Positions 1,103 through 23,518 of a DNA stretch of 37,104 nucleotides are shown piece by piece (position 1 is the stretch's first letter; the number at the start of each line of letters is the position of its first letter). The notes under the pieces are model-generated. The model did no database searches. It was not told where the DNA came from and saw only the letters and a program-made list of their open reading frames with translations. The translations under genes and the position numbers were made by a program. Source of the DNA: Escherichia coli (GTDB lineage: Bacteria > Pseudomonadota > Gammaproteobacteria > Enterobacterales > Enterobacteriaceae); the NCBI RefSeq assembly GCF_003334315.1, contig NZ_QOWR01000047.1. The stretch is one strand, 5' to 3'.

Positions 1103-1770
1103 TCCTTCCTCAATCTTGAGTAACCCCGTCGTTGAAGGGTTACTCAATTCATCCTGATTATACGCACTGCCATGGTGCAACTGCTTCAAATTAAAACTCT
1201 GGTCTGACTTCAAATAATTATCATATTATTTATTTGCGTAACGGGATATCAGAAAAAGATATTTTCCTCATTAATTTATTAGGATGTTTACATCGGATTT
1301 GTGATTAAGCGTGGTATTATTTATTAGCGAAATGTTTCTCTCTTGATTTTTTGCTCATTCATCAATTTTTCTTATTTTAAATTTTCAATCCCTTTGGGGA
1401 TTGACTTCTCTTTAGGGTAATTGATAGCCGTTAACTGACTGTTTTATGAGAAAAAGTGATATAACTTTTTATTCATTGCATAGCAAAAAATGTGATATTG
1501 CACGCACTATGTAATAACTTCTCCCACTGGCCTGGAACAACTGAACTTATTGAACTATGTTAGAAACTACGCCAGTTTAAGTATCTGCCTGAACTGGCAA
1601 GGTTAAGCACAATGATATATCGGCGCGTATTCCGTTGCATAAGTGTGCAAAAAAAGTGGAAGACGTATCGAGATTTGTGCGTCTGATCGAGACATGTTTA
1701 AAAATGGCTTGCCATAATTAACGTTGTATGTGATAACAGATTTCGGGTTAAACGAGGTACAGTTCTGTTT

Positions 1771-1914
1771 ATGTGTGGCATTTTCAGTAAAGAAGTCCTG
1801 AGTAAACACGTTGACGTTGAATACCGCTTCTCTGCCGAGCCTTATATTGGTGCCTCATGCAGTAATGTGTCAGTTTTATCTATGTTATGCCTGCGGGCGA
1901 AGAAAACAATCTAA
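1771..1914 (+). CDS. yobF: YobF, 47-aa small protein co-transcribed with cspC
   Basis: Manual translation from ATG 1771: [47 protein letters not shown]-stop (TAA 1912-1914); 12 nt upstream of cspC. Confidence 0.85.
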
Positions 1915-1926
1915 GGAATTTTTCAA

Positions 1927-2136
1927 ATGGCAAAGATTAAAGGTCAGGTTAAGTGGTTCAACGAGTCTAAAGGTTTTGGCTTCATTACTCCGGCTGATGG
2001 CAGCAAAGACGTGTTCGTACACTTCTCCGCTATCCAGGGTAATGGCTTCAAAACTCTGGCTGAAGGTCAGAACGTTGAGTTCGAAATTCAGGACGGCCAG
2101 AAAGGTCCGGCAGCTGTTAACGTAACAGCTATCTGA
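1927..2136 (+). CDS. cspC: cold-shock-domain protein CspC (69 aa)
   Basis: ORF track protein [37 protein letters not shown]... carries the RNP1 motif KGFGFI of the CspA family. Confidence 0.95.
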
Positions 2137-2182
2137 TCGAATCCACTGATCTGAAGTGTGAATACGCTTCAATCTCGCTATA

Positions 2183-2208
2183 AAGCCTCGTCGAATGCGA
2201 GGCTTTTT
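2183..2208 (+). terminator. intrinsic terminator downstream of cspC
   Basis: Hairpin GCCTCG-loop-CGAGGC followed by TTTTT (2204-2208). Confidence 0.6.
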
Positions 2209-2301
2209 ACTATGCTTTATCTTCGCTCCTGGCGTTCGGATATTTGCCCGCCGCGTGATTCGCGTTACACTTGCGGCCTTTAGTATCCTGCCGGAGTTGT
2301 C

Positions 2302-3900: not shown

Positions 3901-4037
3901 GGCGCAACCTTAACATATTTTGAGAATATAAAACAACTGTTGGAATATATTATTTCATTGCTTTATTGATAACGATTTACATTTAGATTTATATATCAAT
4001 GAAACGTTAAAATAAATAACAAATAAGGGAAGAGGTA

Positions 4038-4097
4038 ATATAGCCTAAGCTATGTCTGATTATTAAAAATACACTAAACATAGCTTTGGCTAAATTC
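4038..4097 (-). promoter_or_regulatory. two MntR-operator-like palindromes upstream of the mntP promoter
   Basis: ATAGC-CTAA-GCTAT palindrome at about 4038-4055 and AAACATAGC-TTTG-GCTAAATT at about 4077-4097, resembling the MntR operator as I recall it (AAACATAGC...GCTATGTTT). Confidence 0.4.
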
Positions 4098-7776: not shown

Positions 7777-9333
7777 ATGGAATTCTTAATGGACCCCTCA
7801 ATTTGGGCGGGGCTACTCACGCTTGTTGTTCTCGAAATTGTGCTGGGTATCGATAACCTGGTCTTCATCGCCATTCTTGCTGACAAACTGCCGCCAAAAC
7901 AACGCGATAAAGCGCGTTTGCTGGGGTTATCACTGGCGCTGATTATGCGTCTGGGGCTGCTGTCGCTGATTTCATGGATGGTCACGCTGACCAAACCGCT
8001 ATTTACCGTCATGGATTTCTCCTTCTCCGGACGCGACCTGATTATGTTGTTCGGGGGGATATTCTTGCTGTTCAAAGCAACAACCGAACTGCATGAACGG
8101 CTGGAAAACCGCGATCATGATTCCGGCCACGGTAAAGGCTACGCCAGTTTCTGGGTGGTCGTCACACAGATTGTCATCCTTGACGCCGTCTTCTCGTTGG
8201 ATGCGGTAATTACTGCAGTAGGGATGGTTAACCATCTGCCGGTGATGATGGCGGCGGTAGTGATTGCGATGGCGGTTATGTTGCTGGCATCCAAACCGCT
8301 GACGCGATTCGTTAACCAGCACCCCACGGTGGTGGTGCTCTGTCTGAGCTTCCTGTTAATGATTGGTCTGAGTCTGGTGGCAGAAGGTTTCGGTTTCCAC
8401 ATTCCGAAAGGTTACCTGTATGCCGCGATTGGCTTCTCGATCATCATCGAAGTGTTTAACCAGATTGCGCGTCGCAACTTTATTCGTCACCAGTCGACTT
8501 TGCCGCTGCGAGCGCGTACTGCCGATGCCATCCTGCGTTTGATGGGCGGGAAACGTCAGGCCAATGTTCAGCACGATGCCGATAACCCGATGCCGATGCC
8601 GATCCCGGAAGGTGCATTTGCCGAAGAAGAACGTTACATGATTAACGGCGTACTGACGCTGGCGTCGCGTTCTCTGCGCGGGATCATGACGCCGCGCGGT
8701 GAAATAAGCTGGGTTGACGCTAATCTCGGGGTCGATGAAATCCGCGAGCAGCTGCTCTCCTCACCGCACAGCCTGTTCCCGGTATGTCGCGGTGAACTGG
8801 ATGAAATCATCGGAATCGTACGTGCTAAAGAACTGCTGGTGGCGCTGGAAGAGGGCGTTGATGTGGCGGCGATTGCTTCGGCGTCTCCGGCGATTATCGT
8901 CCCGGAAACCCTCGATCCGATCAACCTGCTGGGCGTGCTGCGTCGCGCTCGCGGGAGCTTTGTTATCGTGACCAACGAGTTTGGTGTGGTACAAGGCTTG
9001 GTCACGCCGCTGGATGTGCTGGAAGCCATTGCGGGTGAATTCCCGGACGCTGACGAAACGCCGGAAATCATTACTGATGGTGACGGCTGGCTGGTAAAAG
9101 GCGGTACAGATTTGCATGCCTTGCAGCAGGCGCTTGATGTTGAGCACCTTGCCGATGACGATGATATCGCGACGGTCGCGGGCCTGGTGATCTCGGCAAA
9201 TGGTCACATTCCCCGTGTGGGCGATGTGATTGATGTAGGGCCACTGCATATCACCATCATTGAAGCCAATGATTATCGTGTTGATCTGGTTCGCATTGTT
9301 AAAGAGCAACCGGCGCACGATGAAGATGAGTAA
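7777..9333 (+). CDS. yoaE: TerC-family membrane protein with CBS and CorC/HlyC domains, YoaE
   Basis: 518-aa ORF; N-terminal polytopic membrane domain plus soluble C-terminal half; divergent from manX as in K-12. Confidence 0.9.
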
Positions 9334-9336
9334 GCG

Positions 9337-10935
9337 TTAACGTAACGGCATAATGGGCGTGATATGTCCATTATGCCGGGCGGGCGGCGGTTGGCTGCCC
9401 GCCAGCCATTTGGGAAAATCACGTAGCGGCATCGGCTGTGCGTACAAATACCCTTGCAAAATATGCACGCCATGACGGCGCAAATACTTCGCCTGTTCTT
9501 GCGTTTCCACGCCCTCCGCCACCAGTTCAATATTCAGTCTTTGCCCCAGCGCGATGATGATATCGGTCACCGTCGAGTTAACCGCGTCAGAACCTATAGC
9601 TGCGGTAAATGACTTATCAATTTTCAGCACGTCAGGACGTAATGTTTCAAGCCAGGAAAATGAACTGTTGCCGGTGCCGAAGTCATCAATCGCCAGTTTG
9701 ACGTTTTTACGATGTAGCTCGCGGGCAATCCGATAATCAACATCCAGTAAGGCATCGCGTTCGGTGATTTCGAGGATCAGTTGCTGAATCGGGTGAGCGC
9801 TAAACCAGTACTGATTGAGATCTTTTATCAGCACACCACGGCGAAAATGGCTGGGTGCGACGTTAATGCCAACATGAAACTGACTACTCATCGGGAAAAC
9901 ATGGCGCTGACGAATGGTTTCTGCCATCACATAGCGGGTCAGTGGCACAATTAAATGATGTTCTTCCGCGATAGGAATAAACACATCCGGTGAAATCCAG
10001 CCCTGACGCGGATTGTTCCAGCGCAGCAAAATCTCTACACCAATACATTGCTGGCTGCGCGCATTAAGCAAAGGCTGACAGAACAATTCGAACTCATGTT
10101 GCGCCAGGCCCAGATTGATTTCGCGGGAAAAGCTCATCCGGTAAGCGGTCGCCAGCCAGGCGATGTAGCCCACCAGTAAACTTAGCAGCACCGCCAGCGG
10201 TAATTGTGTTGGAAGATAGTGCCATGCCAGCGCCGTAGCCCCCGGACCATTAACGTTAATGGTAAAAGGAAAGCGTTGCGAAGAAACCTGATAGTTTTCA
10301 TTGTCTTCAGGTTGCGGAAGGGAATCTACCAGCCCATTACCATAGAGCAAATGCCGTTTGTCCACCGTCAGGCTGGCGCTACTGATTTGCGGCAGTTGTG
10401 GCTCAAGGAGCATTGCCGTCAGTAAGTCGATGTTAATCATCTCCATGACCCCAGCATTGCTACTGCCCGCTGCAGGCGTCCATTGAATCAAAACCGGACT
10501 GCCTTTAATCAGGGCACGGTCGATCGTCAGGCGTAAAAGTGGTTGCGGTGCAGGAAGTTCAGCCAGAATGTCCACGACGGGCACATTGCGATAACCAAAA
10601 ATGCTGGAGCAATAGAGTGTGCCGTCTTGCACCAGGCCAATGGATCGCACAGTTTGGAGTTTTGCCGCCTGTTTACGTAATGGCAAATGGGCGACAGAGC
10701 AGGGCAGACCAATCAGCGGAAGCAAGACTTCGCTACCTGCCTGTAGGGGAAGCAGTACTTTATCTAATTCCTCTACAGCGTGATTGGCGAATTGTACTAC
10801 CCGTTGTTGATTTAAGTTACGCTGTGAAATAAATCGCACGCTCAGGGTCGAAGCGAGCGTAACGAGTGCGCAAATCGTACAAACAATCATTCGATTACGG
10901 CGATAGGTTTTAATGATCCGTTGTGCTTTTTGCAT
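9337..10935 (-). CDS. pdeD: c-di-GMP phosphodiesterase PdeD (YoaD), membrane sensor with EAL domain
   Basis: DDFGTG motif (LAIDDFGTGNSSFSWL) typical of EAL domains; start placed at the second in-frame ATG (MQKAQRII..., 532 aa) rather than the 542-aa maximum; start choice is uncertain. Confidence 0.85.
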   Translation of the reverse strand: MQKAQRIIKTYRRNRMIVCTICALVTLASTLSVRFISQRNLNQQRVVQFANHAVEELDKVLLPLQAGSEVLLPLIGLPCSVAHLPLRKQAAKLQTVRSIGLVQDGTLYCSSIFGYRNVPVVDILAELPAPQPLLRLTIDRALIKGSPVLIQWTPAAGSSNAGVMEMINIDLLTAMLLEPQLPQISSASLTVDKRHLLYGNGLVDSLPQPEDNENYQVSSQRFPFTINVNGPGATALAWHYLPTQLPLAVLLSLLVGYIAWLATAYRMSFSREINLGLAQHEFELFCQPLLNARSQQCIGVEILLRWNNPRQGWISPDVFIPIAEEHHLIVPLTRYVMAETIRQRHVFPMSSQFHVGINVAPSHFRRGVLIKDLNQYWFSAHPIQQLILEITERDALLDVDYRIARELHRKNVKLAIDDFGTGNSSFSWLETLRPDVLKIDKSFTAAIGSDAVNSTVTDIIIALGQRLNIELVAEGVETQEQAKYLRRHGVHILQGYLYAQPMPLRDFPKWLAGSQPPPARHNGHITPIMPLR

Positions 10936-11065
10936 GCGGGCCACCCTGTAAGCGTATGGCGACAAACGCCTGACGCAACAGTGGAAGTGTAGTGGGGAAT
11001 ATTACAGCAGACGAGAAAGCGGGTATAAATTCGCCCATCCGTTGCAGATGGGCGAGTAAGAAGTA

Positions 11066-14868: not shown

Positions 14869-14901
14869 AGGACGCTTTTTATATGTGATTAAAAGCGTCC
14901 T
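14869..14901. terminator. hairpin between convergent yoaH and yoaC (possible bidirectional terminator)
   Basis: Perfect 11-bp inverted repeat AGGACGCTTTT / AAAAGCGTCCT with U-rich stretches on both strands. Confidence 0.5.
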
Positions 14902-19616: not shown

Positions 19617-21302
19617 TTGAAGAAGGTTTGGCTTAACCGTTATCCCGCGGACGTTCCGACGGAGATCAACCCTGACCGTTATCAATCTCTGGTAGATATG
19701 TTTGAGCAGTCGGTCGCGCGCTACGCCGATCAACCTGCGTTTGTGAATATGGGGGAGGTAATGACCTTCCGCAAGCTGGAAGAACGCAGTCGCGCGTTTG
19801 CCGCTTATTTGCAACAAGGGTTGGGGCTGAAGAAAGGCGATCGCGTTGCGTTGATGATGCCTAATTTATTGCAATATCCGGTGGCGCTGTTTGGCATTTT
19901 GCGTGCCGGGATGATCGTCGTAAACGTTAACCCGTTGTATACCCCGCGTGAGCTTGAGCATCAGCTTAACGATAGCGGCGCATCGGCGATTGTTATCGTG
20001 TCTAACTTTGCTCACACACTGGAAAAAGTGGTTGATAAAACCGCCGTTCAGCACGTAATTCTGACCCGTATGGGCGATCAGCTATCTACGGCAAAAGGCA
20101 CGGTAGTCAATTTCGTTGTTAAATACATCAAGCGTTTGGTGCCGAAATACCATCTGCCAGATGCCATTTCATTTCGTAGCGCACTGCATAACGGCTACCG
20201 GATGCAGTACGTCAAACCCGAACTGGTGCCGGAAGATTTAGCTTTTCTGCAATACACCGGCGGCACCACTGGTGTGGCGAAAGGCGCGATGCTGACTCAC
20301 CGCAATATGCTGGCGAACCTGGAACAGGTTAACGCGACCTATGGTCCGCTGTTGCATCCGGGCAAAGAGCTGGTGGTGACGGCGCTGCCGCTGTATCACA
20401 TTTTTGCCCTGACCATTAACTGCCTGCTGTTTATCGAACTGGGTGGGCAGAACCTGCTTATCACTAACCCGCGCGATATTCCAGGGTTGGTAAAAGAGTT
20501 AGCGAAATATCCGTTTACCGCTATCACGGGCGTTAACACCTTGTTCAATGCGTTGCTGAACAATAAAGAGTTCCAGCAGCTGGATTTCTCCAGTCTGCAT
20601 CTTTCCGCAGGCGGTGGGATGCCAGTGCAGCAAGTGGTGGCAGAGCGTTGGGTGAAACTGACCGGACAGTATCTGCTGGAAGGCTATGGCCTTACCGAGT
20701 GTGCGCCGCTGGTCAGCGTTAACCCATATGATATTGATTATCATAGTGGTAGCATCGGTTTGCCGGTGCCGTCGACGGAAGCCAAACTGGTGGATGATGA
20801 TGATAATGAAGTACCACCAGGTCAACCGGGTGAGCTTTGTGTCAAAGGACCGCAGGTGATGCTGGGTTACTGGCAGCGTCCCGATGCTACCGATGAAATC
20901 ATCAAAAATGGCTGGTTACACACCGGCGACATCGCGGTAATGGATGAAGAAGGATTCCTGCGCATTGTCGATCGTAAAAAAGACATGATTCTGGTTTCCG
21001 GTTTTAACGTCTATCCCAACGAGATTGAAGATGTCGTCATGCAGCATCCTGGCGTACAGGAAGTCGCGGCTGTTGGCGTACCTTCCGGCTCCAGTGGTGA
21101 AGCGGTGAAAATCTTCGTAGTGAAAAAAGATCCATCGCTTACCGAAGAGTCACTGGTGACTTTTTGCCGCCGTCAGCTCACGGGATACAAAGTACCGAAG
21201 CTGGTGGAGTTTCGTGATGAGTTACCGAAATCTAACGTCGGAAAAATTTTGCGACGAGAATTACGTGACGAAGCGCGCGGCAAAGTGGACAATAAAGCCT
21301 GA
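19617..21302 (+). CDS. fadD: long-chain-fatty-acid--CoA ligase FadD
   Basis: Start placed at in-frame TTG 19617 ([14 protein letters not shown]...) giving 561 aa; AMP-binding motif [12 protein letters not shown]. Confidence 0.93.
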
Positions 21303-21320
21303 GCGTTAAGTCAGTCGTCA

Positions 21321-21347
21321 GACGCCGGTTAATCCGGCGTTTTTTTT
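21321..21347 (+). terminator. intrinsic terminator downstream of fadD
   Basis: ACGCCGG-TTAAT-CCGGCGT hairpin followed by seven T. Confidence 0.6.
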
Positions 21348-21371: not shown

Positions 21372-22499
21372 TTGAATTACCAAATGATTACCACGGACGA
21401 TGCGCTGGCTTCTTTGTGTGAAGCCGTCCGTGCCTTTCCGGCGATAGCCCTGGATACTGAATTTGTTCGTACGCGCACTTATTACCCGCAGCTGGGGTTG
21501 ATTCAACTTTTCGATGGCGAGCATCTGGCGCTAATCGATCCACTCGGGATCACCGACTGGTCACCGCTGAAAGCGATCCTGCGCGATCCGTCCATCACAA
21601 AATTTCTCCATGCAGGCAGTGAAGATCTGGAAGTGTTCCTCAATGTCTTTGGCGAATTACCACAACCCTTGATTGACACGCAAATCCTTGCTGCCTTCTG
21701 CGGACGCCCGATGTCATGGGGTTTCGCTTCCATGGTGGAAGAGTATTCCGGCGTTACGCTGGACAAGAGTGAATCGCGCACCGACTGGCTGGCCAGACCG
21801 CTGACCGAACGTCAGTGTGAATACGCAGCGGCGGATGTCTGGTATCTGTTACCGATCACCGCCAAGCTTATGGTAGAAACGGAGGCCTCCGGCTGGCTAC
21901 CTGCGGCGCTGGATGAATGCCGCCTGATGCAAATGCGTCGTCAGGAAGTCGTTGCGCCGGAAGATGCCTGGCGTGATATCACCAATGCCTGGCAATTACG
22001 CACACGCCAACTGGCCTGTCTGCAACTGTTAGCCGACTGGCGACTGCGCAAGGCGCGAGAGCGCGATCTGGCGGTGAACTTTGTCGTGCGTGAAGAGCAT
22101 TTGTGGTCGGTAGCGCGTTATATGCCGGGAAGTTTAGGCGAACTGGACAGCCTGGGTTTATCCGGTAGCGAAATCCGCTTTCACGGTAAAACGCTGCTAG
22201 CGCTGGTGGAAAAAGCGCAGACATTGCCGGAAGATGCCTTACCGCAGCCGATGCTTAACCTGATGGACATGCCGGGTTATCGTAAAGCGTTTAAAGCGAT
22301 TAAGTCGCTGATTACTGACGTGAGCGAAACGCATAAGATCAGCGCCGAATTGCTGGCATCGCGTCGGCAAATCAACCAACTGCTGAACTGGCACTGGAAA
22401 CTGAAACCGCAGAACAATTTGCCGGAGCTGATTTCCGGCTGGCGTGGTGAGCTGATGGCGGAAGCATTACACAATTTATTGCAGGAATATCCGCAGTAA
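21372..22499 (+). CDS. rnd: ribonuclease D
   Basis: 375 aa beginning at TTG 21372 (MNYQMITTDDALASLCEAVRAFPAIALDTEF...); DEDD-exonuclease ALDTEF motif; rnd is known to use a UUG start. Confidence 0.9.
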   Translation: MNYQMITTDDALASLCEAVRAFPAIALDTEFVRTRTYYPQLGLIQLFDGEHLALIDPLGITDWSPLKAILRDPSITKFLHAGSEDLEVFLNVFGELPQPLIDTQILAAFCGRPMSWGFASMVEEYSGVTLDKSESRTDWLARPLTERQCEYAAADVWYLLPITAKLMVETEASGWLPAALDECRLMQMRRQEVVAPEDAWRDITNAWQLRTRQLACLQLLADWRLRKARERDLAVNFVVREEHLWSVARYMPGSLGELDSLGLSGSEIRFHGKTLLALVEKAQTLPEDALPQPMLNLMDMPGYRKAFKAIKSLITDVSETHKISAELLASRRQINQLLNWHWKLKPQNNLPELISGWRGELMAEALHNLLQEYPQ

Positions 22500-22505
22500 A
22501 ATCTT

Positions 22506-22548
22506 CCGAAGCCGGACTGGGCGCGCTCAGCGCCACATCCGGCTTCGG
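22506..22548. repeat. REP-like palindrome between convergent rnd and yeaX
   Basis: CCGAAGCCGGA ... TCCGGCTTCGG perfect 11-bp arms around a GC-rich loop. Confidence 0.4.
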
Positions 22549-22552
22549 CAAA

Positions 22553-23518
22553 CTACAAATCCAACACCAGGCGTTTACCCTTCGCACGCGAACAACAGAT
22601 CAACATACTTTGCTGGCTGGCACGCTCTTCATCGCTAAAATATTGATCCCGATGGTCAGCTTCACCTTCCAGTATTGCTGTTTCGCAGGTTCCGCATACC
22701 CCTTCACGACATAAACATTCCACTTTCGCGGCTTTATTATTTTCAATAACCTGCAAAATAGTCATCTCTTCCGGCACCACAAACTCTTTTCCGGAACGGG
22801 CAAGCACCAGGGTAAAGGCATCGCCGGTTTTGTCTTCGATAGCAAATTGCTCAAAGTGCAGCGTATCGGCGGCGATGTCCAGACGCGCAGCTTCACTTCT
22901 TACCGCTTCAATTAGCGCCTCGGGGCCACAGGTATAAACGTGTGTGCCAGGTTCGATATCCGCCAATAATCGCGCTAATTCCAGTCGTGTTCCGGTTGAT
23001 GAGTGATGCAAGTGAACTTTCTCAGCCTGCGGATGCTGGACTAGCTCATCACGAAATGCGCAACTTTCTGGATTTCGCGAGCAGTAATGTAGCTGCCAGT
23101 CGACGTCGCTGTGTTGCAGCTCTGCCATGTGCGACAGGAAAGGGGTGATACCAATACCGCCCGCGATAAACAGATGCTTTCTGGCTGAGGGAATTAGCGC
23201 AAACAGGTTATTAGGCGTTGAAATCGTTAACCGATTGCCCACTTTTACCTGCTGATGCAAAAAGCGGGAACCGCCGCGCGAGTTTTCCTCCAGCCGAACG
23301 GCAATCTGATAACAAGAGGTGTCATGCGGCGAACTCAGTAGTGAATACGCATTGCTGTACTGGTTATCACCATCGCTCATCTGCACAATGACGTGACTTC
23401 CTCCGGTAAACGCAGGTAATGGTTTGCCATCGGTTGCCACCAGCGTGAAGCGTTTCACCTGTTCGGTAAGGGGTTCAACCTGGCTCACCTGTACTTCAAA
23501 CATTTGATAGTCTGACAT
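22553..23518 (-). CDS. yeaX: carnitine monooxygenase reductase subunit YeaX (CntB-like)
   Basis: 321 aa; C-terminal plant-type 2Fe-2S ferredoxin motif CREGVCGTCETAILEG. Confidence 0.88.
   Translation of the reverse strand: MSDYQMFEVQVSQVEPLTEQVKRFTLVATDGKPLPAFTGGSHVIVQMSDGDNQYSNAYSLLSSPHDTSCYQIAVRLEENSRGGSRFLHQQVKVGNRLTISTPNNLFALIPSARKHLFIAGGIGITPFLSHMAELQHSDVDWQLHYCSRNPESCAFRDELVQHPQAEKVHLHHSSTGTRLELARLLADIEPGTHVYTCGPEALIEAVRSEAARLDIAADTLHFEQFAIEDKTGDAFTLVLARSGKEFVVPEEMTILQVIENNKAAKVECLCREGVCGTCETAILEGEADHRDQYFSDEERASQQSMLICCSRAKGKRLVLDL

Follow-up and report, generated by a model that had tools for sequence, protein, structure and literature searches.

A hairpin encoded between the convergent genes rnd and yeaX of Escherichia coli probably protects the 3' terminus of an rnd mRNA whose transcription is terminated by Rho, and probably descends from a REP; we put the probability of this reading, taken as a whole, at roughly two in three. 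The element belongs to a known class, within which it is ordinary, and a published supplementary table already lists the 3' end. It was analysed within a stretch of 37,104 nucleotides (the window), which belongs to the E. coli chromosome and is reversed relative to MG1655 (about 1.87-1.91 Mb).

The palindrome between rnd and yeaX

The element is a 43-bp imperfect palindrome at positions 22506-22548, which has no strand of its own and corresponds to an RNA hairpin of about 18 bp on either strand. It consists of a left outer arm, CCGAAGCCGGA (22506-22516), a central segment, CTGGGCGCGCTCAGCGCCACA, and a right outer arm, TCCGGCTTCGG (22538-22548). The outer arms form a perfect 11-bp inverted repeat, exactly as described in an initial annotation made from the sequence. 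That annotation had regarded the segment between the arms as a GC-rich loop, a description that we would replace: the 21 nt pair further to give an inner stem of 5-7 bp and a 5-nt apical loop (UGGGCGC / GCUCA / GCGCC.CA, 22518-22537), this being the lineage-variable part of the element, and there is an internal mismatch between the outer and the inner stem.

The palindrome takes up 43 of the 53 intergenic bases between the stop codon of rnd (TAA, 22497-22499, + strand) and that of yeaX (TAG, 22553-22555, - strand). The identities of both genes were checked against MG1655. The rnd gene (21372-22499, + strand, TTG start, 375 aa) encodes RNase D, while yeaX (22553-23518, - strand) encodes the carnitine monooxygenase reductase subunit and has its stop codon within the rnd 3' UTR. 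At the start of rnd (21372-21383), RefSeq/PGAP genomes give a protein of 371 aa, whereas the MG1655, Salmonella and Citrobacter records use the upstream TTG and give 375 aa. An ORF of 71 aa that runs across the hairpin (22372-22587, - strand) was set aside as a mechanical ORF antisense to the 3' end of rnd.

The initial annotation had suggested a calculation of fold energy as a check, and this bore it out, the stem being extremely stable. The minimum free energy (MFE) of the hairpin was -34.4 kcal/mol in the rnd sense and -36.9 kcal/mol in the yeaX sense, with a z score of about -7, and none of 200 shuffled sequences was equally stable. Among 7,411 sliding 50-nt windows across the 37 kb (mean -9.5, sd 4.1), the hairpin was the most stable, and the best 50-nt folds in three block-shuffled copies of the window (-26 to -30) were weaker.

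The 3' end of the rnd mRNA

Published maps of RNA 3' ends place a terminus immediately after this hairpin. MG1655 coordinates are given here with the corresponding window positions. In the RNAtag-seq analyses of Bar et al. (2023; PMC10687069, Supplementary Data 2-4), the dominant rnd 3' terminus, classed as "Primary", lies at MG1655 1886807 (- strand), i.e., at window position 22556 on the + strand, 8 nt after the stem, so that the rnd 3' UTR is 57 nt long (22500-22556, + strand). This terminus was found in two independent RNAtag-seq data sets, with a signal of 0.86-0.89 and p <= 1e-14 in all 3+3 replicates (PMC10687069). The published peak (1886803-1886814) corresponds to a cluster of rnd mRNA 3' ends at 22549-22560 (+ strand), 1-12 nt after the stem. 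The fold that the same authors gave for the terminus is the same hairpin, at -34.3 kcal/mol, with a maximum U-tract of 3 (PMC10687069). Adams et al. (2021; PMC7815308), whose curated Term-seq lists cover three conditions, recorded no 3' end at the hairpin, so that the rnd terminus rests on RNAtag-seq analyses from one group. Neither rnd nor yeaX is mentioned in the TERMITe supplements.

The initial annotation had suggested a bidirectional terminator, which on the rnd side is supported neither by the sequence after the stem nor by the position of a reported Rho termination region. The GC-rich stem-loop of an intrinsic terminator is present, but it does not lead straight into a U-rich tract of 7-8 nt. 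The sequence past the stem is CAAACUAC on the rnd strand, in which a U-tract is absent and the first 8 nt contain a single U; on the yeaX strand it is AAGAUUUU, in which the only Us are distal. A consensus terminator scan called the element on neither strand. A region of termination on the rnd strand lies further downstream: Adams et al. (2021; PMC7815308, Supplementary file 2) reported a Rho termination region at MG1655 1886672 (- strand), antisense to yeaX, which corresponds to window position ~22691, ~143 nt past the stem. Reads upstream and downstream of 1886672 numbered 56 and 22 in untreated cells and 45 and 89 with bicyclomycin, giving a Rho score of 5.03 (p = 9e-8; PMC7815308); because this score is computed from 800-nt windows, the position of termination is coarse, and partial termination at the stem would be compatible with it. 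The 200 nt past the stem on the rnd strand (22549-22748, + strand), which include the Rho termination region, are C-rich, G-poor untranslated RNA antisense to yeaX and may be described as rut-like. Their C/G ratio of 2.0 is at the 99.9th percentile of the window, compared with 1.1-1.3 on the yeaX side, as would be expected where Rho loads.

There is thus, after rnd, a steady-state 3' end just past a stable stem-loop that has no U-tract, with a tract of C over G and Rho-dependent read-through downstream of the stem. We propose that RNA polymerase coming from rnd would pass the hairpin and enter the C-rich, G-poor untranslated RNA antisense to yeaX, where Rho would load on the C-rich tract and terminate transcription roughly 100-200 nt downstream of the hairpin. 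The 3'-to-5' exonucleases PNPase and RNase II would then shorten the tail until they were blocked by the -34 kcal/mol hairpin, and trimming would stop with a defined rnd 3' end 8 nt after the stem. With a terminus mapped to that position in two RNAtag-seq data sets, the suggestion in the initial annotation that the element might be an mRNA stabiliser was the better half of its functional guess, stabilisation being an effect that the hairpin may have. On the other strand, the hairpin is probably also a cap, as yet putative, of the yeaVWX mRNA. A 3' end 8 nt past the stem would also fit direct hairpin-dependent termination or termination driven by collision.

Peters and colleagues are said to have put forward, in 2012, the hypothesis that Rho-dependent transcripts carry protective stem-loops at their 3' termini. 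Dar and Sorek (2018; NAR, PMC6061677) described Rho-dependent transcripts with precise 3' ends just past stable stem-loops without U-tracts, which are trimmed by PNPase/RNase II; REPs made up only 24% of such stem-loops, and it was proposed that the type of terminator can switch by the gain or loss of Us (PMC6061677). The rnd hairpin resembles the members of this class in that there is no U-tract, the 3' end lies a few nucleotides past the stem, C exceeds G downstream, and read-through is sensitive to bicyclomycin. It differs from them in being unusually long and stable and in lying also within the 3' end of a convergent transcript, that of yeaX; moreover, trimming of the rnd tail by PNPase/RNase II, as well as any stabilising effect on the rnd mRNA, is something that we infer.

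Two other accounts of the 3' end have to be weighed against a protective stem-loop. One is that the hairpin belongs with the non-canonical bidirectional terminators of Ju et al. (2019) and would pause the polymerases transcribing rnd and yeaX, so that head-on and trailing collisions would release them without Rho or a U-tract. As described (Ju et al., 2019; Wang et al., preprint 10.1101/2022.10.23.513370), such terminators are Rho-independent pausing hairpins that do not look like intrinsic terminators, and their effect depends on traffic, which has to be two-sided and has more effect at highly expressed pairs of genes. The rnd hairpin is likewise a pausing-type hairpin unlike an intrinsic terminator; it lies between convergent genes and fills the space between them, it is equally stable on both strands, and the rnd 3' end at +8 is sharp. 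It departs from the class as described in that a bicyclomycin-sensitive region follows just downstream on the rnd strand, and in that no yeaX-strand terminus appears at the hairpin in the parts of the TRS tables that cover LB or minimal medium (PMC10687069). The hairpin is also still carried by about 1,341 genomes that lack yeaVWX, and we regard release by collision as unlikely. The other account is that the element is a weak intrinsic (Rho-independent) terminator serving mainly yeaX, with the stem followed on the yeaX strand by AAGAUUUUA, and that its effects on the rnd side are incidental. The yeaX-sense RNA does have four Us within 9 nt of the stem, to which weak pairs could extend the stem, and in related genera this position is occupied by true bidirectional intrinsic terminators. 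Against this, the proximal part of the tract contains no U, the consensus scan called the site on neither strand, the hairpin persists where yeaX has been deleted, and a common E. coli allele (see below) breaks a pair in the yeaX-sense hairpin while keeping a G-U pair in the rnd-sense one. A terminator of yeaX as the primary function therefore seems to us quite unlikely, and we retain the protective stem-loop of rnd as the preferred reading.

Several other features of the RNA were noted in the course of this analysis. Upstream of rnd, a match to the sroD sRNA (Rfam, 115 bits) was found at 21261-21346, at the 3' end of fadD and 26 nt before the TTG start of rnd, with an intrinsic terminator at 21320-21342 followed by a T run; sroD is not among the ncRNAs given in the MG1655 feature table used here. 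A very strong Term-seq 3' end (score 36,548) was also recorded at MG1655 1887883 (- strand; Adams et al., 2021; PMC7815308), corresponding to window position ~21480, ~108 nt inside the rnd ORF, and suggests that transcripts are terminated prematurely or processed near the start of the gene. The second most stable local fold of the window (-33.6 kcal/mol) is at 9337-9410, where there are two adjacent hairpins, GGCATAATGG...CCATTATGCC and GGCGGGC...GCCCGCC. They lie just past the stop codon of an ORF of 518 aa (7777-9333, + strand) and within the 3' end of a convergent ORF of 542 aa (9337-10965, pdeD by its coordinates). A Rho termination region has been reported at MG1655 1899777 (- strand), or window position ~9586 (Adams et al., 2021; PMC7815308); because this region comes after the hairpins, the locus may share the layout of rnd, i.e., a hairpin and then Rho. 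The cspA thermoregulator model was matched in full at 1751-2211 (+ strand; Rfam, 135.7 bits), at the locus of a cold-shock-protein paralogue. Two further inverted repeats were noted, one at 4037-4096 with AT-rich 19-nt arms that are 89% complementary and a 22-nt spacer, and one at 14869-14901, AGGACGCTTTTTAT / ATTAAAAGCGTCCT, with a 5-nt spacer.

Relationship to REPs

REPs are dispersed repeats, with hundreds of copies per genome. They are defined as imperfect palindromes of 30-40 nt with a conserved GTAG at the foot, and both the GTAG and the mismatch in the stem are needed for binding and cleavage by TnpA(REP) (PMC3333891). The initial annotation had called the element REP-like, a description that holds for its resemblance, and probably for its ancestry as judged from orthologues in E. 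marmotae and E. albertii, but not for membership of the family. With respect to architecture, the element is an imperfect palindrome of 43 nt with a stem mismatch and an extragenic 3' location between convergent genes. In common with the E. coli REPs (Y, Z1, Z2) and BIMEs, it is GC-rich and has a GCCGGA...TCCGGC foot. REPs have been reported both as partial Rho-dependent terminators and as mRNA stabilisers.

Membership can be judged most directly from copy number. Of 5,426 complete E. coli genomes searched by BLAST, 5,424 carried the element, each at one site, and an apparent second place per genome proved, in a local BLAST with the same database size, to be the match of the palindrome to itself on the other strand. 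As a positive control, the REP Y consensus was found in the same search at at least 40 places in every E. coli genome. The further copies that the initial annotation had proposed to look for were thus not found, there being one site per genome; of the two observations that it had named as telling against its proposal, i.e., uniqueness in the genome and an unstable stem, only the former was made. No GTAG was found 5' of the foot of the palindrome in either orientation, CGAA (22507-22510, in the left arm) standing in its place. The sole GTAG nearby (22553-22556, - strand) overlaps the stop codon of yeaX and is 4 nt from the stem.

Similarity searches gave a consistent picture. We built REP profiles (nhmmer) from 33 palindromic units harvested in 250 kb of MG1655, against which the E. 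coli element scored 3.6-6.3 bits, which is noise, compared with 12-30 bits for degenerate REPs and more than 30 for canonical ones. Under the permissive BLASTN settings used by Ton-Hoang et al., no other part of the window matched Y, Z1 and Z2 as well as the element did, at 21.4 bits (E = 8.5); seven other places in 287 kb also attain that score. There was no Rfam match at the element at the gathering score; at a relaxed threshold, naRNA4 (a model derived from REP325) matched with 13.3 bits, compared with a gathering score of 59.5, and this match was absent from the orthologue loci. The copy of the MG1655 record NC_000913.3 used here contains no REP feature anywhere, even for REP325, so that the missing annotation at this site carries no weight. 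A search for the arms (CGAAGCCGGA-N8-38-TCCGGCTTCG) over 100,044 species genomes, E. coli not being among the genomes reached, gave among the matches listed at least 120 singletons in unrelated phyla, many of them ordinary terminators, and no repeated family; because the arms occur sporadically in unrelated phyla, they are generic. The element differs from REPs and BIMEs in being single-copy, in lacking the GTAG head, in its noise-level profile score, in having an 11-bp outer stem that extends over the former head, and in the absence of BIME pairing. As it stands in E. coli, it is not a member of the REP family.

A different result was obtained with orthologues. The 3' flanks of rnd were taken from relatives, and the hairpin region was aligned (alignments A2 and A3). 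An alignable hairpin was present at the same place in E. albertii (GTAAGCCGGACTGGGCGCAACTAGCTTCGCATCCGGC), E. marmotae (GTAAGCCGGACAAGGTGCGTTATGCGCTGCATCCGGC) and Escherichia sp. E4385; a Z1 unit of MG1655, for comparison, reads GTAGGCCGGATAAGACGCGTCAAGCATCGCATCCGGC. The hairpins of E. marmotae and E. albertii fit the REP consensus (GTAAGCCGGA...GCATCCGGC) from end to end. Against the E. coli REP profile, the E. marmotae hairpin scored 19.5-19.7 bits, end to end, and the hairpins of E. marmotae and E. albertii each scored 30.2 bits against positions 1-37 of the Z1 consensus, although in 287 kb a single other site, in coding sequence, attained the same 30.2 bits by permissive BLAST, so that nominal E-values for likeness to REPs are optimistic. 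As a matched null we used 120 unrelated hairpins with the same 10-bp arms, taken from the arm search, for which the maxima were 5.5 bits (profile) and 21.4 bits (BLAST). The orthologues are therefore recognisable as REPs by profile and Z1 scores that lie above those of the matched null.

The alignment also suggests how the REP head may have been lost. Alignment A3 shows CG in E. coli at columns 14-15, where E. marmotae and E. albertii have GT. Each of the E. coli changes at the G and T of the REP head creates a Watson-Crick pair with an unchanged base in the right arm, and together the two substitutions lengthen the outer stem from 8 to 11 bp. The E. coli hairpin is thus most likely, as judged from these sequences, a REP in degenerate form, which lost its head when two substitutions extended the stem across it. 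A covariation analysis of seven Escherichia sequences found that 90% of cells pair, with zero two-sided changes and a score no better than that of shuffles; because there is no two-sided compensatory change, it could be the sequence rather than the structure that is conserved. We suppose that a single REP unit was present downstream of rnd in an ancestor of Escherichia, and that in E. coli the GTAG head would have been lost to the two stem-lengthening substitutions, leaving what would now be a fixed, non-mobile element of the 3' UTR. For the fuller history, in which an ancestral REP of the mobile type, GTA[G/A]GCCGGA...GCATCCGGC, after rnd was captured and reshaped, with the head that a transposase recognises overwritten and the stem lengthened from 8 to 11 bp in E. 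coli and with independent interior deletions that kept the fold elsewhere, we judge the odds to be about even.

Variation of the hairpin in Escherichia

Alleles within E. coli, and deletions within the genus, bear on what is retained. A common E. coli allele has a change of C to T at 22546, giving a G-U pair in the rnd-sense RNA (-32.3 kcal/mol) and a C-A mismatch in the yeaX-sense RNA (-30.6 vs -36.6 kcal/mol), which hints, though weakly, that constraint acts on the rnd transcript rather than on that of yeaX. A 36-nt allele, found in about 1,341 E. coli genomes, has an internal deletion of 7 nt (CGCCACA) and a hairpin of -31.9 kcal/mol, while in Escherichia sp. E4385 there is an internal deletion of 13 nt and the hairpin is still stable, at -21.8 kcal/mol. 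The 7-nt and 13-nt deletions are independent, and both left a stable hairpin; indeed, a stable hairpin is kept in every Escherichia orthologue. The 36-nt allele occurs where yeaVWX-dmlA has been deleted, and the hairpin persists there. In E. coli BH100 (locus L002, 1550-1910) and about 1,341 others, yeaV, yeaW and dmlA have been lost together with the greater part of both yeaX and dmlR, and ~30 nt of the 3' end of yeaX remain, with pseudogene fragments of dmlA and dmlR, beside leuE.

These results allow two further accounts to be assessed. If the element were a functional E. coli REP of the present day, it would be recognised by TnpA(REP) and share the roles of REPs at the level of DNA. Its REP-like architecture and location would suit this, as would its standing as the best permissive BLAST match in the window and the sub-threshold match to naRNA4; however, its single copy stands against the at least 40 places per genome of the REP control, its foot lacks the GTAG that TnpA(REP) binding and cleavage require, its profile scores are within noise, and its BLAST score is shared by those seven other places. 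The tests of copy number, GTAG and profile largely refute a current REP, which we consider very unlikely. A palindrome that arose by chance and has no function might be entertained on the grounds that, by our own estimate, about 0.2 perfect 11-bp inverted repeats with a short spacer are expected in 37 kb, and that the same arms turn up sporadically in unrelated phyla. This is hard to reconcile with a stability far beyond that of shuffled sequences, with fixation in E. coli and retention across Escherichia species through independent deletions, or with a mapped RNA 3' end that adjoins the hairpin, and we regard a chance origin without function as extremely improbable. A protective 3' stem-loop of rnd, probably derived from a REP, is the reading that we carry forward.

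Probable turnover of the 3' end of rnd

Hairpins are also found after rnd in other species, with different neighbours. In Salmonella enterica (rnd><minE) and C. freundii (rnd><dmlA), bidirectional terminators composed of an A-tract, a stem and a T-tract lie after rnd, and in E. fergusonii (rnd><L,D-transpeptidase gene) a GGCCCGC hairpin is followed by Ts. The Salmonella and C. freundii terminators are similar to the E. coli element in being GC-rich hairpins in the same position after rnd, between convergent genes. Their stems are preceded by an A-tract and followed by a T-tract, whereas the E. coli element lacks both on the rnd side and, on the yeaX side, shows no more than a distal UUUU. In C. 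amalonaticus (locus L132, 2629-2672) the hairpin after rnd has a REP-type foot, GCCGGATG...CATCCGGC, with no GTAG and no T-tract; considered as a REP it was rejected, with a score of only 2.2 bits against the REP profile. When set beside the terminator of C. freundii, it means that the type of 3' hairpin differs within one genus. The post-rnd hairpins of other genera are not homologous to that of E. coli. Because canonical terminators are found at the same place in Salmonella and C. freundii, the presence of a hairpin after rnd appears to be constant and its type to change, and the contrast between Salmonella or Citrobacter and Escherichia illustrates the switching of terminator type proposed by Dar and Sorek (2018).

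In practice, these findings matter mainly for annotation: the appropriate label is 3'-end hairpin of the rnd mRNA, together with a 3' UTR of 57 nt overlapping the yeaX stop codon, and the labels REP and intrinsic terminator should be avoided. Both the decay of a REP and the turnover of terminators follow ideas of Dar and Sorek (2018), and for that reason would not surprise specialists. The locus provides a clean example of a REP decaying into a unique 3' UTR structure that is invisible to REP searches, and of a gene at whose end neighbouring genera have a U-tract terminator and Escherichia has a Rho-dependent hairpin. If its reading as a fossil REP is true, the locus would document the stepwise conversion of a REP into a fixed stabiliser of a 3' UTR and, for one gene, the turnover between intrinsic and Rho-dependent 3' ends.
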